A stretch of DNA of 64,000 nucleotides from Candidatus Saccharimonadia bacterium (GCA_038230095.1 JBBRNT010000001.1:48848-112847), one strand, 5' to 3'; counted from the stretch's first letter, positions 1 to 34,280 are shown. The notes: generated from the letters alone by a model not told the origin. A program made the numbers and translations.

Positions 1-1
1 T

Positions 2-715
2 TCAAAGGGTCGTAAATTTATTCTTTGCAAGAACGGTACTGTTACTGAAACAACTGATGGTTCACCGACAGACCCATTCTGTGCAAAACCAGGCGCGGGC
101 GGTGTGGTAAACAGTAATATCGCTGCACCAATACCAGATGACTTAACCAACCAGCCCCCATCTACCGCCGGATGGTACCTTATCTTTTGCAACGATTACA
201 CTGGCGGGGTGAGCTTAACTCCGGATGGTCGGGCCCTATGCTATGGGCACGGTGGGCTAATGACATCGGAGACCGCTGGCACAGTGCCAGGACCAAATGA
301 TATGCTCGCACTCTGTAAGGATGGGACGACCGTAAAGACAACCACTGACGGTCTAACTGGTGCTTGCAGCAGTGGTCTATTGATTGCACTATTCTCGCAG
401 ACGGGAGAAGTAACTCAGAGCACCAATCCTAAGTGTAGTGCGAGCGTTGTTACCCCTGGTCTCGACGCCACCGCGATCTGCTCCGCCCGAGGCGGCCCCA
501 TATTTGGCCTCATAAACTTTGCTATCAATTGGTTGATTCGCATTTTGGGTGGAGTAGCTGTCCTGGCATTAATTGTAAGTGGGATTCAATACATTACCTC
601 GCAGGGCAACCCGGACGCCATAAAGAAGGCTAAGAGCCGCATTACAAATGTAATTATTGGGCTACTTCTACTTAGCATCATGTTCGTAGTGCTCAAGTTT
701 ATTGGTATCGGCTAG
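2..715 (+). CDS. VirB2/TrbC-like pilin-family protein, 5'-partial. It has a Cys-rich N-terminal ectodomain and a C-terminal two-helix hydrophobic hairpin.
   Basis: The frame is open from nt 2 to the Met at 104, so the ORF runs off the window start. The C-terminal ~70 aa (GLINFAINWLIRILGGVAVLALIVSGIQYITSQGNPDAIKKAKSRITNVIIGLLLLSIMFVVLKFIG) are two TM helices split by a short polar loop. It is a clear paralog of the next five genes. Confidence 0.6.
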   Translation, partial: SKGRKFILCKNGTVTETTDGSPTDPFCAKPGAGGVVNSNIAAPIPDDLTNQPPSTAGWYLIFCNDYTGGVSLTPDGRALCYGHGGLMTSETAGTVPGPNDMLALCKDGTTVKTTTDGLTGACSSGLLIALFSQTGEVTQSTNPKCSASVVTPGLDATAICSARGGPIFGLINFAINWLIRILGGVAVLALIVSGIQYITSQGNPDAIKKAKSRITNVIIGLLLLSIMFVVLKFIGIG

Positions 716-769
716 CGACCATACCGCTCTACCTTGGTTTTTAGCACTACTTAACCTACAATCTGTGGA

Positions 770-1387
770 ATGAGGACAAAAGTATCACATGCAAAGGCAC
801 TTACTATCGCCGTTGTAGCACTTGGATTACAGGTGGTGGGTAGTTCCACTATTCTCCAACTACAGGCCTTGGCGGCGGCGGGTGGCCCAGGCCAAGCGGC
901 ATGCGTCGGTGGCGGCTATGTTGCTATTCCTGCCGATAACAACGTCGACGCTGCGTGTAAGGCGCAATACGGCCCCTCATCTGGTGCAGCAGTGACAACC
1001 CTAGCAACATCTGTTATATGCAATGATAAGACGGCAGCTAGCTACAATACAGCCACTGGCGATGCTGCGACTGCTTGCAAAAACAACGGTGGCTATACCT
1101 CAAAAGATACGAATTGCCCAACCGTAATTACGCACGGCCTACTGGTGGACTGCAACGCCAAGGGGGGTGTATTACTTGATCTGATCAACTTTGTCATTAA
1201 TTGGCTCATAGGTATTCTGGGAGGTTTTGCGGTATTGGCTTTGATTGTAAGTGGCATACAGTACATTACCTCGCAGGGCAGCCCCGATGGCATAAAGAAA
1301 GCAAAGGTGCGAATTACTAACGCAGTGGTCGGAGTCCTGCTATTATCAATAATGTTCATAGTGCTCAAATTCATAGGAATCGGATAA
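770..1387 (+). CDS. VirB2/TrbC-like pilin-family protein with signal peptide and Cys-rich N-domain
   Basis: The N-terminal signal-like segment is MRTKVSHAKALTIAVVALGL. There are multiple Cys residues in the ectodomain. The C-terminal hairpin (LDLINFVINWLIGILGGFAVLALIVSGIQYITSQGSPDGIKKAKVRITNAVVGVLLLSIMFIVLKFIGIG) is nearly identical to that of gene 1. Confidence 0.65.
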   Translation: MRTKVSHAKALTIAVVALGLQVVGSSTILQLQALAAAGGPGQAACVGGGYVAIPADNNVDAACKAQYGPSSGAAVTTLATSVICNDKTAASYNTATGDAATACKNNGGYTSKDTNCPTVITHGLLVDCNAKGGVLLDLINFVINWLIGILGGFAVLALIVSGIQYITSQGSPDGIKKAKVRITNAVVGVLLLSIMFIVLKFIGIG

Positions 1388-1695
1388 TGAAAACATATAT
1401 TATTACTTATCTTCTAGCGGCAGGCCCCACCCCGATATTGCAGGGCGTAAACCCTGATACCCAAGGACTGGATGCTGTACCTATACTCATTCATAACGTC
1501 GTGAATATTGCATTGTTCATAGCCGGCGGCCTATCGGTCATCTTCTTTATAGTCGGGGGTATGCGTTTTGCACTGTCTGCCGGTAATCCAGCCAGCACCA
1601 AACAGGCAAGGGAAACCATGCTCTACGCTATTATTGGTCTGGTGGTTTCTCTCGGGTCTTTTGCCATACTCAACTACGTAATACACATTTTCTAG
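1387..1695 (+). CDS. small VirB2/TrbC-like pilin-family protein
   Basis: The ATG overlaps the previous stop (taATGa). The N-terminal signal-like segment is followed by the same two-helix hairpin architecture (NIALFIAGGLSVIFFIVGGMRFALSAGNPASTKQARETMLYAIIGLVVSLGSF). Confidence 0.55.
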   Translation: MKTYIITYLLAAGPTPILQGVNPDTQGLDAVPILIHNVVNIALFIAGGLSVIFFIVGGMRFALSAGNPASTKQARETMLYAIIGLVVSLGSFAILNYVIHIF

Positions 1696-1701
1696 GACAC
1701 T

Positions 1702-2016
1702 ATGCTACACTCACTTCTTCACTACGCTCTTGCTACAATCACCATTTCTGATAACGGAATTATTAACTCTGGCACTGGGTTCTCTAGCCTGAATCCAGCC
1801 GGCGTATTCAGTGTAGTGGCAAATACTATAATTTTTCTCACTGGGGCAATTTCAGTAATCATGATCCTAGTCGGCGCTATTCGCTACGTAGTTTCGGCCG
1901 GTAATTCTGGGGCAGTTGCCAAGGCGAAGGATACTATCATCTACGCCTTGGTTGGACTGGTAGGCGCTGCCATGGGCTACGCTGCAATCCGCTTTATCGG
2001 GAACTTTTTCAAGTAA
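1702..2016 (+). CDS. small VirB2/TrbC-like pilin-family protein
   Basis: The two-helix hairpin is VANTIIFLTGAISVIMILVGAIRYVVSAGNSGAVAKAKDTIIYALVGLVGAAMGYAAIRF, paralogous to its neighbours. Confidence 0.55.
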   Translation: MLHSLLHYALATITISDNGIINSGTGFSSLNPAGVFSVVANTIIFLTGAISVIMILVGAIRYVVSAGNSGAVAKAKDTIIYALVGLVGAAMGYAAIRFIGNFFK

Positions 2017-2091
2017 TACTCTCGCTACCTGGTAGCAGCGTATGCTATCATTTTGCTAACGCTCATAAGCTAAATCACTAAGGAGAAACAA

Positions 2092-2481
2092 GTGAAACGA
2101 CTACAACAACTAATCCTCGGCGGCTTTACCGCCATGCTCGCTGTCATGTTCATGGCCGCACCAGCCCTAGGTGCGCCAGATGAGCTGGTAAATGGCATTA
2201 ACGGCTCGTCACCGACGAATGCCTCAAGCTGTCTGTTCGCAGGCCAGACCGGGTGTACGGCAGCCAACAGCATCTTCAGTCAGGTTGCCAACGTCCTGAT
2301 CTTCATCATCGGTGCCGTCGCTGTTATCATGCTGATCATCGGTGGTCTCCGCTACGTTCTCTCCAGTGGTAACTCCAGTGCAGTTGAAGGTGCTAAGAAC
2401 ACCATCCTCTACGCTATCATCGGTATCGTAGTAGCCTCACTGGCCTTTGCAGCGGTGAACTTCGTAGTTGGTAAGCTGTAA
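2092..2481 (+). CDS. VirB2/TrbC-like pilin-family protein (signal peptide + Cys-containing ectodomain + hairpin)
   Basis: RBS aaggag lies upstream. The signal peptide is MKRLQQLILGGFTAMLAVMFMAAPALGA. The C-terminal half is about 98% identical at the nt level to gene 2608..3030. Confidence 0.65.
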   Translation: MKRLQQLILGGFTAMLAVMFMAAPALGAPDELVNGINGSSPTNASSCLFAGQTGCTAANSIFSQVANVLIFIIGAVAVIMLIIGGLRYVLSSGNSSAVEGAKNTILYAIIGIVVASLAFAAVNFVVGKL

Positions 2482-2498
2482 TAAGCGCCGACCCAGGA

Positions 2499-2524
2499 AG
2501 AGACCCCTTCGGGGGTCTTTTTTG
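2499..2524 (+). terminator. rho-independent terminator (agaccccttcgggggtct + T-run)
   Basis: An 8-bp GC stem with a ttcg loop is followed by tttttt. Confidence 0.8.
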
Positions 2525-2607
2525 ATAAGGTCTTTTGTATTCTCGCTCAAATCTGCTATGATTCGGCCAAGTCAAGCAAAAATATATAACAGCTCACAGG
2601 AGAATTT

Positions 2608-3030
2608 ATGCCCAAGTTCAGTAAAGTAAGTCGTATTATTGCCCAGGCCTTCCTGGCAATTACTCTGATTACTAGTCCGTTTGTAGCTTCCATCGCACTG
2701 GCCGCTCCGTCGGGTCTAACGGATGGTATTAATGGCTCAGCACCGACTGGAGCGAGCACCTGCTTATTTGCTGGTACTGGCACCAATGCCGCTGGTAGTG
2801 TCTGTACGGCTGCGGATAGTATCTTCAGCAAGGTTGCCAACGTCCTGATCTTCATCATCGGTGCAGTCGCTGTTATCATGCTGATCATCGGTGGTCTCCG
2901 CTACGTTCTCTCCAGCGGTAACTCCAGTGCAGTTGAAGGTGCTAAGAACACCATCCTCTACGCTATCATTGGTATCGTAGTAGCCTCACTGGCCTTTGCA
3001 GCTGTGAACTTCGTAGTTGGTAAGCTGTAA
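2608..3030 (+). CDS. VirB2/TrbC-like pilin-family protein (signal peptide; paralog of 2092..2481)
   Basis: RBS ggagaa lies upstream. The signal peptide is present. The last ~70 aa are identical to the previous gene. Confidence 0.65.
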   Translation: MPKFSKVSRIIAQAFLAITLITSPFVASIALAAPSGLTDGINGSAPTGASTCLFAGTGTNAAGSVCTAADSIFSKVANVLIFIIGAVAVIMLIIGGLRYVLSSGNSSAVEGAKNTILYAIIGIVVASLAFAAVNFVVGKL

Positions 3031-3047
3031 TAAGCGCCGACTCAGGA

Positions 3048-3073
3048 AGAGACCCCTTCGGGGGTCTTTTTTG
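3048..3073 (+). terminator. rho-independent terminator, duplicate of 2499..2524
   Basis: The hairpin plus T-run is identical. Confidence 0.8.
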
Positions 3074-3809
3074 TTCCGTATGAGGTGCGGGTGGAGAGGG
3101 TACTACCCTCCTTCCTCCCATTAGCATCTATACCCTCCCGCTTCTATCCTGAAATACAGTTCTTCTCTTCTTGTGCCTTTTGTCCAGGCAAAAGGCACCA
3201 AAACCTGTCTCGCACATTGCCTTCACGGACGGAGCAGAACCAAGAACTTTCCACTTGGTCTGTGCTGCGTAACTTGCTCTTCCTGACAAGGCAGGAAGAG
3301 CTTCGAACAGTACTCGCACGGTAGATACTTACTAGTAGAAGTTCCAAGTCTTGGTTCTTTCCGGTGACTGGCAGGTGCTCGGTGATCAACCATGGATGGT
3401 TACCCGAGGCGGGTATGCAGGGAGTCAGGAAGAATCCACCCTCATGCTGACCCGTCTCCCCCTTGAACCTCGCTAGATAGTAGCTTCAGCGAGCATGAGT
3501 ACGCCGGACGGCGGCTCGTTGTCTCGCAGCAATAGATAAAGTAACCCAACAGACTGTGTCTATGAGTGAAATAGAACAAAAGGGATGAAGACTCGTTCTG
3601 GTGCTTGGCAATAAGTAGGTAGTGTCTTGCGATAGAGTTGTTCGCTGTACAAAAAGAGTTTTGCCTACTTTTGCTCGTTTGCCAAAAGTAGGAAAGAAAG
3701 AAATGTTGTGTAGCCTACTACCGTGCGAGGCCATAGATGAAATAACTAGTTAAGGTAGAGGAGAATCAAAAAACTCCCCGGAGGGAGTAGTTTGGATCGA
3801 GGCTCGATA

Positions 3810-4235
3810 CTAGGCGGGGCGGACTTTGATCTTCTTGACCTTGTCCTGGGCCACCTTGGGAATGGTGATAGTAAGGACGCCATCCTTCAGGCTAGCAACT
3901 GCCTTTTCGGCAACAGTTGAGGTAGGTAGAATGACCGAGCGAGAGAATGAACCCCAGTAGCACTCCTGCACGTAGTAGTGCTCGCGGTCGACTTCGCGCT
4001 CTTCACGGCGCTCGCCGCGTAGTGTAACAACGTCTTCTGACACACTAATGTCTATGTCATCGGCCTTAACGCCGGCGATGGGCGCCTTGATAACAACATT
4101 TTCCTTGGTCTGATAGACATCAACAGCAAGCTGTCCTTCTACCTCTTCCATCCAGTCTTCGCTAGTCGCACCGACCTCGTCCAAGAACTCATCTTGCAGA
4201 ATATTCTCTTCCTGGGCAGCGATTTTCTTAGCCAT
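3810..4235 (-). CDS. small heat-shock protein, Hsp20/alpha-crystallin family
   Basis: The alpha-crystallin domain is VKADDIDISVSEDVVTLRGER...LKDGVLTITIPK. The start is chosen at MAKKIAAQ, which has RBS ggagga. The track ORF extends to 4253. Confidence 0.85.
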   Translation of the reverse strand: MAKKIAAQEENILQDEFLDEVGATSEDWMEEVEGQLAVDVYQTKENVVIKAPIAGVKADDIDISVSEDVVTLRGERREEREVDREHYYVQECYWGSFSRSVILPTSTVAEKAVASLKDGVLTITIPKVAQDKVKKIKVRPA

Positions 4236-6239: not shown

Positions 6240-6457
6240 GAGGCCTGTAACCAATTCGTTGGTAACAGGCCTCTGTTTTTGTTTGTGGGATGAGAACCCC
6301 CGAAAAGCCGGGTACTCACGGCGTGGGGTTCGGCGTAGGGCGCAGTCGCGGCGGAGCTGGCTTCAAGAACCTGCGCCCGGAGAAGCACGAATGTGCGCTA
6401 TCCCTTCGAGCGCACCAGAGGCCTGTAACCAATTCGTTGGTAACAGGCCTCTGTTTT
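6222..6457 (+). repeat. 58-bp direct repeat (6222..6279 and 6400..6457: last 18 nt of tRNA-Arg plus its terminator hairpin) flanking a ~120-bp insert (6280..6399)
   Basis: The sequence atcccttcgagcgcaccagaggcctgtaaccaattcgttggtaacaggcctctgtttt occurs twice, identically. Confidence 0.85.
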
Positions 6458-6473
6458 GTTTAGGATAGGGGTA

Positions 6474-8033
6474 ATGCGAGAAACTCCTTCACCAGCGGCG
6501 CGGCGTAGTCAATTATGGCTCTACATCCTGGCCTGTACCGCCTTTGTGCTCTGTGCACTGGGGATAGTCTGGGCGGCCTATGGTCGAGTAGAGCTGAACG
6601 GCAGCGGGAATAGGCTTATTCTGGCGAACTACCGTGATGACTTCATCTACAACTCCCTGGTTGCTAGCGGGGAGTTCTGTCGGCACAATCTGACAACAGC
6701 TATTCCAGAGGGGGGCTGCCGCATTAACCTGATCTGGTCTTTTACCCACCTCTTGTATTTCAACCAATCGGTTGCGCTGGCCGGCTTGTTGCTGCGCACT
6801 CTACTCTTTGGGTTAATCGCGACTGCCCTCCACGTGTTTGCCAGGCGCTGGTCCAGGGCCGCTGGGCTCCCAGAAGGGCGGGCCAGGCTGTGGCTGTTTG
6901 CCTTGGCTATGACGGCGGCCTATCCGCTGATCCTGGTGGCACCACGCTTGGACTACCATGAGTTTAGTGTCTTTTTGTCTCTCATCTCATCGCCGCCCAA
7001 TTTATTTTCGGCATTGGCCTATTTGGTGGTATTTGGCGGTTACTACCTGGGGCGTCACAAGCCGAGTACTTGGCCCATCTGGGGTGGTCTGGCAGGCATA
7101 TGGTTGTTTATCCACCCTTACTTTGTGTACCAGTGGGTAAGTCTAGTACTGGTCTGGGCCTATCTGGATAGGCGGACGCTCCGCGACCACTGGGGTAAGC
7201 GTTTGCTTCTGCTCGTGCCATCGACAGCAGCCATGCTCTACTACCTGTGGCTCGCACGGGTGAACCAATTCTTCAGATTCCACCTAGGAACCAATGTGAC
7301 TCGTTACCCGCTTAGCCTCTTGATTGTTCTGGTGGTGACACTAGTCGTGTATGGCTGGCTCAGCGTGAGGATAATCCGGCGTGGTACAGCTATGGCTGAG
7401 CGATCGACACTCCGACCGGATGGGTACCTCCTGAGCTGGGCGGTGGTGGTTGGGGTGTGGCAACTAGTTCCGATAGCCACCCAGATCCGTGGACTACTCC
7501 TCCTAAGCCTGCCACTGGCACTCCTACAGACGCAGCTGGTAATTCGATCCGGCGTGCGGTCCTATACGCGCCTGCTCCTTGGGGTGGTCGCGCTTAATTG
7601 TCTGCTCCTCTTAGGATCACTTATGAGCTACGAGCGACAGTATCTGGGTCCGGATACTCGACAGGTCACCCTGACCAGTGAAGACCGCGACCTAGGACTG
7701 TGGCTTGGAGCACCACCACAGAAGCAGGAGTATTTTGTGGGAACGGAGACCGCGAGCAGCCGCTTCATGTGGTTGTCACAGACCCACATTGTGAATACCC
7801 AGCAGCATGAGAGCCAGTACTTCCCCTGGTGGCACGAGCTAGATAAGCAGGTACGCCAGGGAGCTGGATCCTGCGACAAGGTAGCGCTGGGTATGAATAC
7901 GACCCATGCCAGCGGTGAGATTGCAGCCAAGTTCCGGGACCGGGACTGGATTACATTTATGCAGAGCTGTGGAGCACCGGTACGCTTCGAGAACGCGTCC
8001 TGGGTGGTCACTGGCGCTCCAGCGGCCAGGTAG
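6474..8033 (+). CDS. large polytopic membrane protein with C-terminal soluble domain; function unknown
   Basis: There are more than 10 hydrophobic helices. The start is chosen at ATG 6474 (RBS aggatagggg) rather than the TTG at 6456, which lies inside the repeat. Confidence 0.5.
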   Translation: MRETPSPAARRSQLWLYILACTAFVLCALGIVWAAYGRVELNGSGNRLILANYRDDFIYNSLVASGEFCRHNLTTAIPEGGCRINLIWSFTHLLYFNQSVALAGLLLRTLLFGLIATALHVFARRWSRAAGLPEGRARLWLFALAMTAAYPLILVAPRLDYHEFSVFLSLISSPPNLFSALAYLVVFGGYYLGRHKPSTWPIWGGLAGIWLFIHPYFVYQWVSLVLVWAYLDRRTLRDHWGKRLLLLVPSTAAMLYYLWLARVNQFFRFHLGTNVTRYPLSLLIVLVVTLVVYGWLSVRIIRRGTAMAERSTLRPDGYLLSWAVVVGVWQLVPIATQIRGLLLLSLPLALLQTQLVIRSGVRSYTRLLLGVVALNCLLLLGSLMSYERQYLGPDTRQVTLTSEDRDLGLWLGAPPQKQEYFVGTETASSRFMWLSQTHIVNTQQHESQYFPWWHELDKQVRQGAGSCDKVALGMNTTHASGEIAAKFRDRDWITFMQSCGAPVRFENASWVVTGAPAAR

Positions 8034-8229: not shown

Positions 8230-8319
8230 GGAGAGGTGACCGAGTGGCTGAAGGTACCGCTCTCGAAAAGCGGCATACCCGCAAGGGTATCGTGGGTTCA
8301 AATCCCACCCTCTCCGCCA
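8230..8319 (+). tRNA. tRNA-Ser (anticodon CGA), long variable arm, CCA encoded
   Basis: The acceptor is GGAGAGG/CCTCTCC. The anticodon stem is CCGCT/AGCGG with loop CTCGAAA. The T-loop is GGTTCAAATCC. Confidence 0.9.
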
Positions 8320-8321
8320 AA

Positions 8322-8356
8322 GAAATGTCCTCAGCCTAGGCTGGGGGCTTTTCTTT
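8322..8356 (+). terminator. terminator after tRNA-Ser(CGA) (cctcagcctaggctgggggc + ttttcttt)
   Basis: The hairpin plus T-run is homologous to 5413..5440. Confidence 0.6.
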
Positions 8357-8385
8357 GTTGGCGCGTATCCCGCTATAATCTGGTT

Positions 8386-9777
8386 ATGCAGACATTGTTA
8401 CGACGCGTACGACCACTCCCCTATCTAGTTCTCAAGCATTGGCGTGGGCTCGCGGGCGCACTGCTCCTATTCGGCTTTTTCTTTATCATTTGCGTGGGCC
8501 GGCTCGACCCAGACTTCGGGTGGCATCTGGCGGCCGGACGCTACATCCTGGCGCATGGCGTGCCAGCGACCGACCCGTTTAGCCTGACCATGTCGAAATT
8601 CCGCTGGGTGGACCATGAGTGGCTGCAGGACGTACTGTGGGCTGGCGTGTACCATCTGGGCGGCTACCGACTGCTTGCTGTAATGTGGGCCGCTCTCTGG
8701 ACAGCTGGTGTGCTGCTAGTCACTCGAACACGCTCCTGGGTGGTTGTAGGGCTGACGGCTGGCGTGCTAGCCCCATTTGCCGGTATACGCGCTGCCATCT
8801 GGGGGCTTTTGGGCGTGGGGCTAGTGGAGTGGCTAGTAGCAAGCAAATGGCGCCAGCGCTATGTGGCAATTATTGGTTTGTTTCTTATCTGGGCCAATGT
8901 GCATGCCAGCTTTGTATTTGGCCTGGGCGTGCTGGGTCTGGGTGTGGTTATGGACCGGGCCAAGGACCGCCGCCTGGTCTGGGCGACTGGACTCGCGGTG
9001 CTGGCTTCTCTTCTGAATCCCTATGGCTGGCAGGTGTATCTGGAGGTGTGGCGGACAGCATCGGATAGGCAGCTAGCCGGCCGAGTGTTTGAGTGGGCGC
9101 CCAATGCGCTGCGGCCGGCCTACCTGGTATTTGTACTGCTCCTGGTCTGCTTAGTTCTGTCGCTGGAGGGCTGGCGGAGCTGGAGGCGCTATCTGGTGGC
9201 AGGACTAACGCTGGTGATGAGCCTAGTTTCTATGCGTCATACTGTCCTGTTTGTAGCGGCTAGCTCGCGCCACCTTGGCCGACTATACCGAGTGGCAGCC
9301 AACAAGCTCCGTGGACGGCTACAACTGGCTTTTGTAGCTAAATATACCCTGGTGGTGGCAGTGATCCTGCCCACCGTACTAGGCTCCCAGTTGCGGTATG
9401 ACCGAGAAAGCCACTACGCTGGGAGGTATGTAGCGTATGCGCAGGACCATCCGTGTGCCGGTAACGTCTTTACCACCTATGACAATAATGGCTATCTCAT
9501 CTGGAAACTACCTGGCTTCCGGAGCTACATAGATGGGCGTATGCCCAGCTGGAAGGACGGCGAGGGTAAAATATTTGATCGTTACCTTCGGGTTTTTAAC
9601 GACCCTACCTATCGAGACCTGGAGTTTCGGCGCTTTAATATTGCTTGTGTGGTGGTACTCCAGGTTGATGAATCGCTAACGCACCGGATACAGGAGCAAT
9701 TCTTTGCAGATCTACGAGCGCAGGGCTGGCAGGACATTCCCGCTATGGGTAGTTACGTGGTGCTCGCACGGCCATAA
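8386..9777 (+). CDS. polytopic membrane protein, possibly a GT-C-fold glycosyltransferase-like enzyme
   Basis: About 11 TM helices are present. An early loop has the DPF...WVDHEW acidic motif. There is a C-terminal soluble domain. The track ORF start at 8236 overlaps the tRNA, so ATG 8386 is used; it is preceded by a tataat box. Confidence 0.4.
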   Translation: MQTLLRRVRPLPYLVLKHWRGLAGALLLFGFFFIICVGRLDPDFGWHLAAGRYILAHGVPATDPFSLTMSKFRWVDHEWLQDVLWAGVYHLGGYRLLAVMWAALWTAGVLLVTRTRSWVVVGLTAGVLAPFAGIRAAIWGLLGVGLVEWLVASKWRQRYVAIIGLFLIWANVHASFVFGLGVLGLGVVMDRAKDRRLVWATGLAVLASLLNPYGWQVYLEVWRTASDRQLAGRVFEWAPNALRPAYLVFVLLLVCLVLSLEGWRSWRRYLVAGLTLVMSLVSMRHTVLFVAASSRHLGRLYRVAANKLRGRLQLAFVAKYTLVVAVILPTVLGSQLRYDRESHYAGRYVAYAQDHPCAGNVFTTYDNNGYLIWKLPGFRSYIDGRMPSWKDGEGKIFDRYLRVFNDPTYRDLEFRRFNIACVVVLQVDESLTHRIQEQFFADLRAQGWQDIPAMGSYVVLARP

Positions 9778-13326: not shown

Positions 13327-14009
13327 GATACCGAAATTCTAGCTCAGTGGAGCCAATCTGTCGACTCACACGGCGTCTTGCCTGGCGCGCACAAGCCCAG
13401 CCTATGATTATTAGATGTGCCTGTTTTGTTCGATTGGGCATTTGTTCCTTGAGCGTAGCGAACGACCATAAAATTTTTACGCGAAGGGGAAATGGAGGAG
13501 TACTATCCACCTCCCTCCCATTTCATCTATGACCTATTCTGCTAGTCCGAGAATTCCTTTCTCCTCTTTCTTGGTACCTTTGTGACTCCAAAAGTACCCA
13601 AAACCAAGCGAGACAACGAGCGACAAAGCTCGACTCACTCGCTTTGTCCCACCGTACTCATGCTCACTGACGCTGTATTTTTTCGATGTTTGAGCAAATC
13701 AGGGGTGGACGGAAGGGGATATGGCAGCGAGACGCGCCTGAATACCGAACATAACGGGTGTGGGAGGGGCGAACGGCATAAGCGCTTTGACCTAAACATT
13801 TCACGATTCAGAATTATGGCTTAAGCACGCTAGAAAAGTGGCGGTCTGAATTGATTATGTTTTTGGCGTGAGTTTGCGTATTTTCAATTTGAGGGCTTAG
13901 CCGAACATACCACTTATGCTAATCCCGAACGCTACATTGGCTCTTGATGGGCTTTCATGAAGAGGATTATGGCTTAAGGACTGCAGAAAGTAGTGAGTCA
14001 GAAAGAAAA

Positions 14010-18495: not shown

Positions 18496-19524
18496 ATGGA
18501 ACTGATCGAGATTACAGATAAAGCCCAGTGGGATGCCCTAGTCCAGACATCGGCCTTTGGCCACCCGCTCCAGCTCTGGGGCTGGGGTGAACTAAAGCGT
18601 ACCGGCGGCTGGTGGCCGTACCGTGTAGCAGTCATGGACGGCAGTAGGCTAGTGGCGGCAGCACAAATCCTGATGCTACCCATACCTGGTCTACTGGGGC
18701 GCGTAGCCTATTCGCCACGCGGACCGGTGATGGACCCGGAATGCGCTCAGGCGGCCGAGGCACTAGTGCCGATAACCCAATTTGCTAGGGCGCAACGGGC
18801 TCTGTTTCTTACCCTGGAGCCGGCTTGGCAGCGGTTTGATTGGCCTAAGCGCTGGCGCAAGTCCCGCGAGCATGTGCTTATGGCAGAGACCTTCACTATT
18901 AACCTGAAGTTGGAAGAAGACCAGCTGCTGGCAGCGATGCGGCCCAAAACGCGGCAGTATATTCGCAAGGCGGATACAGATGGAGTCAAGATTGTTCAGG
19001 ATAAGGTAGGGCAGTACTTTGAGGACTTCTGGCGCATCTACTCCGATACGGCCAAACGAGCCAAGTTTGGGCTGCATGCCAAGGAGTACTACGCGAAGCT
19101 CTGGGCAGAGATGGGCGAGAACAATCTGGTAATCTACGCGCTCGTAGATGGCAAGCCCGAGGCGTTTCTATGGCTGGCGTGTGCCGGCACAGTGGCGTTT
19201 GAGCTGTACGGCGGCGTAACCGAGAAAGGCGCCTTACACAAGGCCAACTACAATCTGAAATGGCAGGCTATACAGGTAACTAAGGCCAAAGGCTATCTGG
19301 TCTATGACTTCAACGGCCGGCTCAACGATGGTGTGTCGCAGTTTAAGGTGGGTTTTGGGCCTAAGGAAATGAACTACATAGGCTCTTTTGATCTGGCATT
19401 TAACCCCGGACGCTATGCACTGTGGCACAGTGTGCTACCCGTGGCCAAGCAGGTGGGCCGCCGGATGCGCAATCTGAAGACAGAGCGTAAGGATAAGAAG
19501 ACCCAGAAAGCTGATCTGTCGTGA
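18496..19524 (+). CDS. FemAB-family peptidoglycan interpeptide-bridge aminoacyltransferase
   Basis: The FemABX fold is indicated by MELIEI..QWDALV...HPLQLWGWGELK. The length is 342 aa. Confidence 0.75.
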   Translation: MELIEITDKAQWDALVQTSAFGHPLQLWGWGELKRTGGWWPYRVAVMDGSRLVAAAQILMLPIPGLLGRVAYSPRGPVMDPECAQAAEALVPITQFARAQRALFLTLEPAWQRFDWPKRWRKSREHVLMAETFTINLKLEEDQLLAAMRPKTRQYIRKADTDGVKIVQDKVGQYFEDFWRIYSDTAKRAKFGLHAKEYYAKLWAEMGENNLVIYALVDGKPEAFLWLACAGTVAFELYGGVTEKGALHKANYNLKWQAIQVTKAKGYLVYDFNGRLNDGVSQFKVGFGPKEMNYIGSFDLAFNPGRYALWHSVLPVAKQVGRRMRNLKTERKDKKTQKADLS

Positions 19525-20570
19525 GACAAGAGGCAACGGCTGACCAGATTGAGCGCTGGGATGAGCTGGTAGCAGCTAATCCAGATGGAGGCAATGTGCT
19601 GCAGTCCAGAGTATTTGCCGAGGTAAAGGCCCGTACCGGCTGGAAGCCCCGCTTCTTCATCTATGACTTATCCGGAGTCCAGGTAGCTGTACTGTACCTG
19701 ACTCAGCAAATCCCCGTACTGGGACAGATCTGGTATGCCCCGAAGGGCCCAGGTGTGGCTACAGTGGAACAGCTAGCTAGTTTTACCAAGGCCAATCTGG
19801 GGCTACCGGCATTCCTGGTTAAGATTGAGCCGGAACTGCGGGTGGATCCGAAAGTCCTGAAACAACTACAATCGCCCAAGCTAGGCGTGGTAAAGGCACC
19901 ACGGGACATACAGCTAAATGTAGCAACTGTGATTGTGGACCTAGCGGCAACCGAAGAAGACATACTGAACTCATTTAAGCAGAAGACCAGGTACAATGTG
20001 CGGCTAGCTGAGAAAAAAGGCGTGACCGTTGAGGCGGTTGAGGCAACGGATGCCAACTGCCAGACTATGTATGACCTGATGAAAGCAACGCGTGACCGGG
20101 CAGGGTTCTTTCTGCGGGATTATGGCTATTTCTCACATTTCTGGCAGAGTCACCAGATGGCCTGGCGCGGGCAACTCTTCTTTGCCCACTATGAGGGCCA
20201 GGTGCTAGCGGGGGACTTTGCTACCTACTTAGGCGGTAAGGGGCTGTACAAAGACGGTGGGTCAATCCGCGCCCATTCGGAGCTGCAGGCGCCCTACCTA
20301 CTGCAGTGGCGGGTAATGCAGTGGCTGAAGGAACATGGCGTAACCGAGTACGACCTGCATGGCACGCCACCCGCAAGCGAGATAGAGAACCCCAACCACC
20401 CATTTGCCGGCTTAGCCAGATTCAAAACAGGCTTTAATGCTGAAATTACCCAGTTTATAGGTACCTACGACCAGGTACTAGACGTACGCAAGTACGCTAT
20501 CTGGAACCGGCTGGGTGAGCGCATTGTGACCGGCGTGAGCCGACGGGTGAAGAACCGGCTGTTTTACTAA
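19521..20570 (+). CDS. FemAB-family aminoacyltransferase, tandem paralog
   Basis: The GTG start overlaps the previous stop (gtGTGa). The domain organisation is the same. Confidence 0.75.
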   Translation: MRQEATADQIERWDELVAANPDGGNVLQSRVFAEVKARTGWKPRFFIYDLSGVQVAVLYLTQQIPVLGQIWYAPKGPGVATVEQLASFTKANLGLPAFLVKIEPELRVDPKVLKQLQSPKLGVVKAPRDIQLNVATVIVDLAATEEDILNSFKQKTRYNVRLAEKKGVTVEAVEATDANCQTMYDLMKATRDRAGFFLRDYGYFSHFWQSHQMAWRGQLFFAHYEGQVLAGDFATYLGGKGLYKDGGSIRAHSELQAPYLLQWRVMQWLKEHGVTEYDLHGTPPASEIENPNHPFAGLARFKTGFNAEITQFIGTYDQVLDVRKYAIWNRLGERIVTGVSRRVKNRLFY

Positions 20571-20630: not shown

Positions 20631-21077
20631 CTAGGTTTGATCTGAGCGCTTGGAGCGCGCTGGGCTGACGATGATGGTGGTATCGCAGCAAGGGCAGACA
20701 ACGAACTGCTTTATGCCGGCAGCACGGCGCCGGTGGCGGAGGTGAGTACTACGGACTATCTGGTGGATGGTGACGTGGATGGCTGTAGGGTCGAGACGGT
20801 AGCCAACACTCCTGACCGCTTCTACCGACATGATTGGCTGGGGGAGTTGGGCGTTGATCTGGTCGCGGATGCGGCAAACCAGGACACGGATGGAGCTACG
20901 CACGTACTGCGGCTCACTATCCCAGACCTGGTGCGCGATCTGCTTGAAGGTAAAGACGCGCCCAGGGGACGTGGCCAGAAGCGCTAGCAGATTGAACTGC
21001 AGGTGAGCGAACCGGATTGGTAGCCCGTCCAGCGTGACGGTACGGTCGTCCAGGTCAATAACCAGTCGCGCGGTCAT
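20631..21077 (-). CDS. stand-alone winged-helix DNA-binding protein (OmpR/PhoB C-terminal 'trans_reg_C'-like) with Cys-containing C-terminal tail
   Basis: The core LDGLPIRFAHLQFNLLALLATSPGRVFTFKQIAHQVW...IRVLVCRIRDQI...VRSVGYRL matches the OmpR effector-domain pattern. The tail is VVCPCCDTTII. The start is at MTARLVI, ATGA-coupled to the upstream gene. Confidence 0.65.
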   Translation of the reverse strand: MTARLVIDLDDRTVTLDGLPIRFAHLQFNLLALLATSPGRVFTFKQIAHQVWDSEPQYVRSSIRVLVCRIRDQINAQLPQPIMSVEAVRSVGYRLDPTAIHVTIHQIVRSTHLRHRRRAAGIKQFVVCPCCDTTIIVSPARSKRSDQT

Positions 21078-21484
21078 GACGGCACTTGGTGATCCTGCGC
21101 GAAGAAGCCATAACCGCAGCGAGGGCAACGGACGTGATCCTGGGGTAGACCGACAATGATCTGTGCGGGTGACCCAATGATCTCAATTTGCTCGGCGCCC
21201 AGCAACATGATCTGGCCTACCCCGTGTACTGTATCGATGATCTGGCGCTGCTTGGCGGTATCGCCCAGCTTGCGGCGCAGGTTCGACAGATGGGTTTTTG
21301 CCAGGCTCAATGAGGTTTGCTTGCTTGCATGGATGCAATAACGGATCTGATCGTTGGTGATGAGGCGGCTGGGGTTGAAAGCAAGCAGGCCCAGGATACT
21401 GAGCTCGGTGGGCGTAACTGCGACAAGCCGTCCATCGAGAGTGACCCGGTGGCTATTGCAGTTGATGATCAATCTAGTGGTCAT
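21074..21484 (-). CDS. stand-alone winged-helix DNA-binding protein (OmpR C-terminal-like), paralog, with CPRCGYGFF tail
   Basis: The core is LDGRLVAVTPTELSILGLLAFNPSRLITNDQI...LSNLRRKL..IDTVHGVGQ. The start is at MTTRLII, which has RBS aaggat. Confidence 0.6.
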   Translation of the reverse strand: MTTRLIINCNSHRVTLDGRLVAVTPTELSILGLLAFNPSRLITNDQIRYCIHASKQTSLSLAKTHLSNLRRKLGDTAKQRQIIDTVHGVGQIMLLGAEQIEIIGSPAQIIVGLPQDHVRCPRCGYGFFAQDHQVPS

Positions 21485-21619
21485 AGTGATCCTTAGATGT
21501 GAAGGTACGGATAATCGGTGACTGTACAATATTACTCTTGGAATTTCAAGCATAGCCGAGTTCAATATAGGCGATGGTGGTGTAAGATAGAGGGGCAATT
21601 ATTATCTGGAGAAGCCACC

Positions 21620-23575: not shown

Positions 23576-24304
23576 ATGTCAGCAAGATTAACGGCAATAG
23601 ATGGTCCAGCCAACGCTGGCAAGTCCACCCTAGCGGCTGAGTTAGCCAAGCGACTTGGAGTGGCCATTGTGAACACGGGCAGTATTTACCGCATTGGTGG
23701 ATACCTGGCTCACGGCGAAGGACTAGACCTAACGAATGATGCAACATGCGCAGAGTTCTTCGCAGGGCTTGATCTATACCTGGCCAATGGCCTAATCCTG
23801 GTCAACGGCGAGGACTTCAGCTCACAGCTCCGAAGCCCCCAGGCAAGCGTGCTGTCCAAGGCGGTAGCCAAGCTGCCGTCCGTGCGCGAGGTGGTGCGAG
23901 GAGTTCAAAGGCTTTTTGTGGAGCAGGCGGGTGGCCGGGCGGTGGTAGAGGGCCGCGACATTGGCACGGTAGTCTTCCCCGAGGCTGATTTGAAGCTCTG
24001 GCTCGATGCCTCTCCAGCGTGCCGAGAATACAGGGCCTACCGGGTGCAATTGGCACGCGGAAGCAGTCCGGAAGTGGCACGTGAGGAAGCCCGCCGCATC
24101 ATGGCCCGCGATGCGGAGGATGCGGAGCGGCACCACTCACCCATGGTCGCACCGACCGACGCCATTACCTTCATGAACGAGTTCATGACGACCGAGGAGG
24201 CCGTGGAGACATTGCACGGCATTGCGCTGCTACCTGCCCGCGCCAGACCCAGTAGAGTGTCTGCTAGGCGAGTGGGTGGCCGCATCTACTTGGAGCAACA
24301 GTAA
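23576..24304 (+). CDS. cmk: cytidylate kinase
   Basis: The N-terminus is IDGPANAGKST...GRDIGTVVFPEADLKLWLDASPACRE. Confidence 0.8.
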   Translation: MSARLTAIDGPANAGKSTLAAELAKRLGVAIVNTGSIYRIGGYLAHGEGLDLTNDATCAEFFAGLDLYLANGLILVNGEDFSSQLRSPQASVLSKAVAKLPSVREVVRGVQRLFVEQAGGRAVVEGRDIGTVVFPEADLKLWLDASPACREYRAYRVQLARGSSPEVAREEARRIMARDAEDAERHHSPMVAPTDAITFMNEFMTTEEAVETLHGIALLPARARPSRVSARRVGGRIYLEQQ

Positions 24305-24317
24305 AGCTCGCTATACT

Positions 24318-24351
24318 GGCCCCGGATTTCGATCCGGGGCCTTTTCTTTTT
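24318..24351 (+). terminator. terminator (ggccccggatttcgatccggggcc + ttttcttttt)
   Basis: A 10-bp stem is followed by a T-run. Confidence 0.75.
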
Positions 24352-24454
24352 CCATATTTGTTACGCTTGAGTTCTCGAAAAGAAGATGGTTTAATGCAGT
24401 ATCCTTCGGGAGAACCTAGACCCGGCCACCTGGCCCTGACCCCAAGGGGTAGAC

Positions 24455-25123
24455 TTGTTCACAGTAGTGATCGATGGACCCGCAGGTGCGGGCAAGGGCA
24501 CCCTAGTGCGCTACCTGGTAAAGCTGCTCGGAGAGCGAACTGGTGCAGCGTGGCGGCCGCTGGATACTGGCTCGGCCTACAGAGCAGTGGGAGTGGCCGC
24601 GCACTTGTTGGGGACGCCCATGACTGATGTTGTGGACCTGACATACCTGGCTGCTGCGGTGCAGTTTGATCCGGAGACGGGTGTAGCCTACGCAGTTGGC
24701 GAGACCGCTGTCGGACACCTAATTCGGAGCCCAGAAGCCAGCGAATGGTCCTCCAAGGTAGCGGTAATCCCGCAGGTTCGTCTGGCGGTGAATAAACGGT
24801 TTCATGCCTTTGCGGCCGAGACCAACATTGTGGGTGATGGCCGTGATCTGGGTAGTGTGGTCTTTCCAGACGCATTGCTCAAGGTATACCTGACTGCCAG
24901 CCCTCGAGCGAGGGCAGAACGGCGAACGGCCGAGACCGAGGGAGCGACGGATATTGCCCAGATAGAAGCAGCCATTGCCGAGCGCGACTACCGCGATGCT
25001 CACCGGGCCGATGCACCCATGACCATGCAAGCCGACTACGTGCTGGTGGATACCACTGGACGGGCGGTGCAGGAATACGGTGACGAGGTAGCCACCATGG
25101 CGATTGAACGAATGAAGTACTAG
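24455..25123 (+). CDS. cmk: cytidylate kinase, tandem paralog
   Basis: The sequence is VIDGPAGAGKGT...GDGRDLGSVVFPDALLKVYLTASPRARAERR. A TTG start is inferred. Confidence 0.8.
   Translation: MFTVVIDGPAGAGKGTLVRYLVKLLGERTGAAWRPLDTGSAYRAVGVAAHLLGTPMTDVVDLTYLAAAVQFDPETGVAYAVGETAVGHLIRSPEASEWSSKVAVIPQVRLAVNKRFHAFAAETNIVGDGRDLGSVVFPDALLKVYLTASPRARAERRTAETEGATDIAQIEAAIAERDYRDAHRADAPMTMQADYVLVDTTGRAVQEYGDEVATMAIERMKY

Positions 25124-32334: not shown

Positions 32335-34280
<1,946 letters not shown>

Follow-up and report, generated by a model that had tools for sequence, protein, structure and literature searches.

We analysed a 64,000-nucleotide stretch of DNA, referred to here as the window, from the Candidatus Saccharimonadia bacterium assembly GCA_038230095.1 (JBBRNT010000001.1:48848-112847). 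The first 3.1 kb of the window contained six consecutive open reading frames (ORFs) on the + strand, which we have designated w1 to w6 and which encode predicted proteins of the T4SS_pilin family (PF18895; T4SS, type IV secretion system). The six genes were arranged in tandem with gaps of -1 to 126 nucleotides, the start of w3 overlapping the stop codon of w2, and so constituted a tandem array in the sense of two or more pilin genes. Six co-oriented pilin-like genes had been described at this place in a first-pass annotation of the DNA, which also had w1 running off the start of the window; the full-length protein (P0124) was 312 amino acids long, with 75 of its codons upstream of the window. 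The array and the near-identical 3′ halves of its last two genes, w5 and w6, are the main subject here, and the coordinates of all features are given in Table 1.

A search with Pfam hidden Markov models (HMMs) matched PF18895 to all six proteins, five of which reached the gathering score of 26.6 bits (30.0-39.4 bits); w4 fell slightly under it (24.3 bits, E 3.3e-5). In each protein the matching region was the C-terminal 55-60 residues, which form the two-helix part. A family HMM built from 122 homologs of w6 was compared with all 666 window ORFs and matched w1-w6 (E 1.6e-47 to 1.6e-10) and no other ORF, and the match of w4 to this 122-member model had an E-value of 4.5e-30. Hydropathy analysis revealed that each of the six proteins has a pair of hydrophobic stretches in its C-terminal part and that w1, w2, w5 and w6 also have a signal-peptide-like N-terminus, the leaders of w3 and w4 being short (approximately 15-20 amino acids). 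The loop between the two helices carried the motif S-x-G-[NS]-x2-[AG]-x3-A-[KR] in 6/6 translations. The AlphaFold model of w6 was a helical hairpin with helices at residues 72-100 and 106-139 and a predicted local distance difference test score (pLDDT) above 90. By hydropathy and by this model, the proteins had the VirB2-type architecture of a leader, two hydrophobic helices and a short polar loop. PF18895 was matched by 122/122 homologs, 36 of which also matched PF04956 (TrbC/VirB2) at E<=0.01 (best 1.3e-7); among w1-w6 themselves the sole PF04956 match was that of w1 (14.6 bits, E 0.04). The tie of the six proteins to TrbC/VirB2 is therefore a transitive one, which runs through the sequences of close homologs. 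At E<=0.001 there were 1859 homologs of the w5/w6 type and 12 of w1. One homolog from the JGI/Logan/ENA data (P0131, located outside the window) was a 283-amino-acid protein with three T4SS_pilin hairpin units in one chain.

The array is made up of three pairs, namely w1 and w2 with their large Cys-rich ectodomains, the minimal w3 and w4 proteins (approximately 100 amino acids), and w5 and w6, which carry one Cys pair each. The full-length w1 protein has a signal peptide, an ectodomain of approximately 210 amino acids with 10 Cys and the C-terminal T4SS_pilin hairpin. The predicted structure of this ectodomain was unusable (pLDDT 52.7), and a scan of genome contigs with w1 returned solely a distant Berkelbacteria locus. 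w2 is a paralog of w1, with 72% amino acid identity over the C-terminal 90 amino acids and approximately 70-74% nucleotide identity. The w5 protein has a Sec-type signal peptide (..APALG/AP..), an N-terminal segment of approximately 35 amino acids with its one Cys pair, and the hairpin; w6 has a signal peptide (..IALA/AP..), an N-terminal segment of approximately 41 amino acids, again with one Cys pair, and a hairpin whose amino acid sequence is the same as in w5. The earlier reading of the genes as VirB2/TrbC-like pilins that share a two-helix hairpin with an SxGN-type loop thus agreed with the family searches (w4 lying just below the gathering score), with the hydropathy profiles, with all six translations, and with the T4SS genes found beside the array of a relative (see below). 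The three Cys-rich ectodomains it listed were reduced to two, those of w1 (10 Cys) and w2 (6 Cys), as w5 and w6 have a single pair (2 Cys each) and w3 and w4 have none.

Table 1. Coordinates of the features described in the text (positions counted from the first nucleotide of the window).
Feature	Position	Strand	Description
Pilin gene w1 (partial)	2..715	+	3′ 237 codons of the 312-aa protein P0124; PF18895 36.2 bits
Pilin gene w2	770..1387	+	205 aa; signal peptide, 6-Cys ectodomain, hairpin; PF18895 30.0 bits
Pilin gene w3	1387..1695	+	102 aa, minimal, no Cys; PF18895 39.4 bits
Pilin gene w4	1702..2016	+	104 aa, minimal, no Cys; PF18895 24.3 bits
Pilin gene w5	2092..2481	+	129 aa; PF18895 36.7 bits; ortholog P0003 in L003/L004
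Homogenised block, copy 1	2282..2524	+	w5 hairpin-coding 3′ part, stop codon, intrinsic terminator
w5 terminator hairpin	2496..2523	+	-19.1 kcal/mol (folding)
Intergenic region 5′ of w6	2534..2607	+	putative extended -10 TGcTATGAT (2554..2562), putative ribosome-binding site AGGAG
Pilin gene w6	2608..3030	+	140 aa; PF18895 36.2 bits; orthologs P0121/L007
Homogenised block, copy 2	2831..3073	+	w6 hairpin-coding 3′ part, stop codon, terminator
w6 terminator hairpin	3045..3072	+	-19.0 kcal/mol (folding)
Non-coding element	3099..3739		~640 nt, between the w6 terminator and the HSP20 terminator
Inverted-repeat cores CATCTAT(G/A)	3125..3137 and 3727..3739		bound the inversion
Solo end-module copy	13493..13674		hairpin, CCCATT, CATCTATGACC, second hairpin, CAAAACC
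Tandem paralog pair regions	18496..20570, 20631..21598, 23576..25123

Named GroEL homologs (77-81% identity) were from Candidatus Saccharimonadia, Saccharimonadales or Patescibacteria, and named pilin homologs were from Candidatus Saccharimonas, Candidatus Chaera renei or Patescibacteria; judged by these homologs, the host is a bacterium of the Saccharimonadia (Patescibacteria/candidate phyla radiation, CPR). A syntenic relative, L005 (accession: GCA_043767845.1), showed approximately 80% nucleotide identity in HSP20. On its - strand L005 encodes a TraC-like protein (VirB4), PrgI (VirB3-like), a 1220-amino-acid protein and TrbL_3 (VirB6-like, 859 amino acids), followed by five PF18895 pilin genes (+), HSP20 (-) and a phosphoribosyltransferase gene (+), the last two being placed as they are downstream of the array in the window. 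By type, one of the L005 pilins corresponds to w1/w2, one to w3, one to w4 and two to w5/w6; w3 shared 54% identity with the L005 pilin r2, and w4 shared 46% with r3. This synteny predicts that the genes of the T4SS machinery start immediately to the left of the window, where they probably lie; it is on the arrangement in L005 that the earlier proposal of T4SS machinery upstream finds its support.

Alignment of 2282..2524 with 2831..3073 (offset 549) revealed 5 mismatches in 243 nucleotides, an identity of 97.9%, and with lower identity the repeat extended to 2254..2524 and 2803..3073 (271 nucleotides, 95.6%). The repeat had been announced as a 244-bp block starting at 2281 with approximately 98% identity; it was confirmed as real, in a register one nucleotide shorter. 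In both genes the block spans the hairpin-coding part, the stop codon and the intrinsic terminator, and the four mismatches within the coding part (2282..2481) are all synonymous. Overall, w5 and w6 are 72-74% identical. Both terminators were missed by the terminator scan and confirmed by folding as a hairpin followed by a T-run, the miss probably being due to a stem extension that absorbs the T-run. The promoter and ribosome-binding site 5′ of w6, read from the sequence, are putative. A consensus promoter scan did not call the w6 -10 promoter; the region upstream of w6 was identical to that of its L007 ortholog at 27/30 positions in 2555..2614, which exceeded the adjoining coding sequence.

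In a sliding comparison, w5 and w6 shared 45-60% identity, interrupted by indels, between the promoter region and approximately 2273, and 97-100% identity from approximately 2274 through the terminator (2524), a sharp step. The corresponding ortholog comparisons (w5 with L003, w6 with L007) were even, at 70-95% along the length. Over the 198-nucleotide hairpin block the two paralogs were 97.5% identical, whereas either of them was 88-90% identical to the orthologous blocks of L003/L004 and L007. At third codon positions in the block the paralogs shared 94% and the orthologs 67-71%, and the synonymous divergence (dS, Nei-Gojobori) was 0.10 between paralogs compared to 0.52-0.60 between orthologs. 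The paralogs were thus closer to each other than to their orthologs within a sharply bounded tract, the pattern of concerted evolution. As the paralogs are alike within genomes and different between genomes, and the boundary is sharp, these comparisons point to gene conversion, and it is well supported that w5 and w6 are old paralogs whose 3′ halves, hairpin and terminator together, have been recently homogenised by it.

Sequences from relatives bear on how widely this occurs. L007 is a 694-nucleotide megahit k141 contig from another metagenome sample, and it contains a w6 ortholog whose leader and N-terminal segment are of the w6 type and whose upstream intergenic region is also shared with w6. 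The contig opens and closes with the same 141 nucleotides (period 553), as expected of an assembly graph that loops through a tandem repeat, which indicates that the L007 lineage also has two genes with at least 141 identical nucleotides; the L007 terminator in the shared block differs from that of the window. The L005 pair r4/r5 showed only 68.7% identity in the block, so that homogenisation is limited to some lineages. L003 and L004 have one gene, which joins the w5 N-terminus and the shared block to the flank that is found 3′ of w6 in the window; a deletion by unequal recombination between the direct repeats would explain this single chimeric gene. The ratio of non-synonymous (dN) to synonymous divergence was approximately 0.01 for the hairpin, compared to 0.09-0.12 for the mature N-terminal segments, and between orthologs the N-terminal segments had a dN approximately 20 times that of the hairpin. 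The N-termini are therefore far freer to change, at a dN/dS that does not indicate positive selection.

Other origins for the repeat were weighed against these data. Repeats are often mishandled in metagenome-assembled genomes, and a mis-join or falsely expanded repeat could have been produced in this way. The two copies, however, differ at 5 positions and have unlike upstream halves. The Logan unitig L001, an independent sequence that matches window positions 16..2311 at 99.96% identity, ends at 2311. This position corresponds to the final 31-mer ahead of the point at which the copies would merge in a k=31 graph, and a unitig that ends there indicates that both copies were present in the reads. 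In ENA contigs from other samples, too, a w6 ortholog is complete and follows the 3′ end of a different pilin gene with its terminator, and an assembly artefact is scarcely credible. The first-pass annotation had left the choice between very recent duplication and gene conversion. A recent partial or tandem duplication without conversion, in which w6 would be a young gene with an imported or fast-diverged N-terminal half, would suit the simple direct repeat of 549-nucleotide period and the single gene of the w5/w6 type in the closest relatives, L003 and L004. The w6-specific leader, N-terminal segment and intergenic region nevertheless exist in L007, where the block is 11.6% different; the duplication must then be older than the divergence of the two lineages, although the paralogs in the window differ by only 2.5%. 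With the low dS between the paralogs and N-terminal halves that are just 45-60% identical and interrupted by indels, recent duplication is very unlikely, and gene conversion is favoured by the presence of a w6 ortholog in a lineage with an 88%-identical block. A third possibility is programmed variation, in which the constant block would be a recombination anchor for the shuffling of N-terminal cassettes, as in Neisseria pilE/pilS, much as had been suggested when it was noted that N-terminal domains could be swapped onto a constant membrane anchor. The tract does end at the boundary between variable N-terminus and constant hairpin and takes in the 3′ flank, the ortholog dN is distributed as described above, and a candidate invertible segment lies directly 3′ of the array (see below). 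There are, however, two partners only, both complete with start codon, ribosome-binding site and terminator; silent cassettes are lacking, the N-terminal dN/dS reflects purifying and not diversifying selection, and the copied tract is the constant part instead of the variable one. We therefore regard programmed shuffling as improbable. The comparisons did not bear out domain swapping: w5 and w6 are both complete genes, each with its own promoter-like region and terminator, and their N-terminal dN/dS is approximately 0.1.

A further alternative concerns what the proteins do. They could be T4SS-associated membrane hairpins that form no extracellular pilus, making instead a short channel through the monoderm envelope or serving as stator or assembly factors; remotely, they could be small membrane proteins of an unrelated kind, for instance holin-like ones. 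Gram-positive-type (MPF-FATA-like) T4SSs are normally without pili (PMC12102498, PMC10633639), there was no significant match to solved pilins, and weak cross-matches to other small membrane families, such as DUF6112 and DctQ, illustrate that a hydrophobic hairpin carries little signal. The family model is nevertheless specific, being matched by all 122 homologs; one third of the close homologs match TrbC/VirB2, at E-values down to 1.3e-7; genes for VirB4, VirB3-like and VirB6 proteins adjoin the array in L005; and in w1 and w2 the N-terminal domains, which are large, secreted and Cys-rich, suit an exposed surface structure more than a buried channel. We consider a pilus-free function unlikely, though the least remote of these alternatives. 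It is very probable, in our judgement, that the region is the pilin array of a chromosomal T4SS of a Saccharimonadia bacterium, with the 3′ halves of w5 and w6 homogenised by gene conversion. Several observations weigh against this assignment. The PF04956 gathering score (27.9 bits) was reached by 0/6 proteins, a Foldseek search of the PDB gave a best E-value of 0.79 (a bare helical hairpin not being discriminating), and the family profile had no match among PDB sequences at E<=10. No T4SS-family Pfam domain of the VirB4/VirB6/VirD4 type was found in the 60 downstream ORFs scanned, which represent most of those of at least 120 amino acids. According to published accounts, a pilus has been observed in no Patescibacterium (PMC11665869, PMC12857230, PMC10633639), and 'pilin' for w1-w6 is a family name and a prediction. 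On the side of gene conversion, the evidence from L007 is one short looped contig, and the single gene of L003/L004 may alternatively represent an ancestral single-copy state.

If the array does encode pilins, a course of assembly can be proposed by analogy with VirB2-family pilins in general and with transposon sequencing (Tn-seq) data from S. epibionticum. After membrane insertion of the six proteins and cleavage of their leaders, a VirB4 ATPase would extract the hairpins, which would polymerise on a VirB6 platform into a pilus-like conduit to the host bacterium. In this conduit the polar basic loop would point towards the lumen and the N-terminal segments outwards, and paralogs with different N-termini could provide different surfaces or roles (major, minor or tip). 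The best candidates for major subunits would be w5 and w6, because they have the most conserved cores, far more homologs than w1, promoter-like regions of their own and strong terminators. Since their cores are identical, co-assembly should be possible, and a filament of w5 and w6 would display two different N-termini. w1 and w2 may be tip or decorating adhesin-like subunits; the ectodomain length of the w1/w2 type was very variable among homologs. The shared core suggests co-assembly of w5 and w6 and a hairpin that acts as a strongly constrained polymerisation module, joined to an N-terminus that tolerates approximately 20-fold more change. The locus is a clear example of two array members that have an identical core and a different promoter, leader and exposed N-terminus, and, probably, of how arrays gain and lose genes through recombination between conserved 3′ halves. 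In the only Saccharibacterium that is genetically tractable, epibiotic growth requires the T4SS and its series of pilins.

The non-coding element 3′ of w6 was approximately 80% identical to its counterpart in L003/L004, which is inverted. When 3132..3732 was flipped in silico, window positions 2799..3743 became collinear with L003 461..1409 in one alignment (81.5% over 967 columns), which indicates a clean inversion between the window and L003. The element was absent from the syntenic locus of L005. L003 encodes a Xer-like tyrosine recombinase (1536..2258) approximately 90-130 nucleotides past the right inverted repeat of the flipped element, and tblastn detected no homolog of this recombinase in the 64-kb window. 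Conservation of the element was mosaic with no conserved reading frame, and its predicted fold was strong (z -5.6, + strand). There was no match in Rfam at E<=1, and no sigma-70-like consensus promoter was called inside the element (the HSP20 promoter scored 11/12). A scan of IMG/VR and a BLASTN search of phage GenBank sequences found no further relatives, and two pattern scans of JGI metagenomes returned 0 matches and then 24, all of which appeared chance-like on inspection.

Each end of the element carries an end module consisting of a hairpin, CCCATT, CATCTATGRCC, approximately 45 nucleotides, a second hairpin and CAAAAC. A solo copy of the module (Table 1) sits in a 980-nucleotide non-coding gap 5′ of a class I aminoacyl-tRNA synthetase gene and is followed by the motif GCGAGACAACGAGC-[hairpin]-GTACTCATGCTC, which in the 3.1-3.7 kb element is found on the other strand with a shorter hairpin. 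The stems of the second hairpin covary over five module copies (GTGCC/GGCAC, CCTAC/GTAGG, GGTAC/GTACC). The core sequence CATCTATGGCC recurred a third time at 32373, within groES, which was dismissed as a chance match, and identities as a T-box, RNase P, tmRNA or group II intron were unsupported by Rfam and ARAGORN. From its sequence features, the element could be an invertible segment, a MITE-like (miniature inverted-repeat transposable element) unit, a set of recombinase sites or an RNA of a new type. The same 980-nucleotide gap also contains a direct repeat, AGRATTATGGCTTAAG..GAAA, at 13810..13836 and 13963..13989 (153 nucleotides apart), for which there was no Rfam match. A bolder reading of the whole locus, which we hold to be unlikely, is that conversion actively keeps the core and terminator of two differently promoted pilins identical, giving two N-terminal surfaces in one T4SS filament, and that the adjacent segment 3132..3732 might be a site-specific inversion switch or mobile recombination module acting on the locus. 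If true, this would be a mechanism of phase or host-range variation so far undescribed in CPR bacteria.

The 61 kb downstream of the array encodes ordinary chromosomal genes, which include HSP20, a ComF-like phosphoribosyltransferase, tRNAs, a class I aminoacyl-tRNA synthetase, TsaD and FemAB, as well as a Mur ligase, cytidylate kinase, GroES/GroEL, PGM, PGI and ABC/FtsX transporters. The G+C content of positions 1..4000, which contain the pilin array, was 49-50% with near-zero GC skew, and that of the remainder was 53-62% with uniformly positive skew. Other tandem paralogs in the window were two FemAB-family genes, two overlapping Trans_reg_C ORFs and two cytidylate kinase genes. Two ORFs within the tRNA gene cluster, 6456..8033 (525 amino acids) and 8236..9777 (513 amino acids), were without a Pfam or NCBIfam match, and the start of the latter overlaps tRNA-Ser(cga) (8230..8319).

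The closest parallel to the array is that of Candidatus Southlakia epibionticum ML1 (SEML1_0006-0019; Wang et al. 2023, PMC10633639), which belongs to the same class as the window host. As here, approximately six small, divergent, VirB2-like PF18895 pilin genes form a tandem series that is part of a chromosomal Gram-positive-type T4SS. The S. epibionticum T4SS cluster contains essential predicted pilin subunits (PMC10633639), and a 2025 review describes six structurally conserved, sequence-divergent VirB2-like pilins in it and speculates on a pilus-like conduit (PMC12857230). The ML1 system was tested by Tn-seq, whereas the window array is known from sequence and its neighbouring machinery from the synteny with L005. 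The function of the T4SS in these bacteria has been called 'completely unknown' (PMC11665869). Quinonero-Coronel et al. (2025) surveyed Patescibacteria and reported 441 arrays, each with 2-11 pilin genes, from 383 assemblies; the arrays were especially common in Saccharimonadia (PMC12102498). These are tandem PF18895/PF04956 genes, usually near virB4 and often near dnaA, and their tandem arrangement is like that described here. Identity within the surveyed arrays had a mean of 25% and a maximum of 54% (PMC12102498), which w5 and w6 exceed at 72-74% overall, because of the converted block; in their 3′ halves they reach 98%.

Compared to the VirB2/TrbC/TraA pilins of diderms (PF04956), w1-w6 have the same leader, hydrophobic two-helix hairpin and short polar basic loop. 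They differ in that the host is monoderm, the N-terminal extensions are long (up to approximately 210 amino acids) and Cys-rich, and there are six paralogs instead of one major pilin; nothing points to cyclisation, acetylation or a VirB5 tip protein. Tandem VirB2 paralogs in Bartonella and Anaplasma likewise represent amplified, varied pilin genes in a T4SS locus, for which surface diversification has been proposed (PMC12102498). Those are diderm animal pathogens under immune pressure, whereas the partner here is the host bacterium, and what is seen here is a homogenised constant part and not demonstrated variation. The pilin-like conjugal transfer protein of the Mbov_0395 family (NF045849), from Mycoplasma integrative and conjugative elements, is also a small hairpin protein of a monoderm T4SS; it gave weak matches over its whole 80-position model (E 1.5e-6 to 0.06), with scores of 13-28 bits against a cut-off of 40, and w1-w6 are not members. 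The locus is a further case of the published Patescibacterial T4SS pilin arrays and is otherwise ordinary; what is new, and well supported, is the concerted evolution of two array members, which exceeds the within-array identity reported so far.

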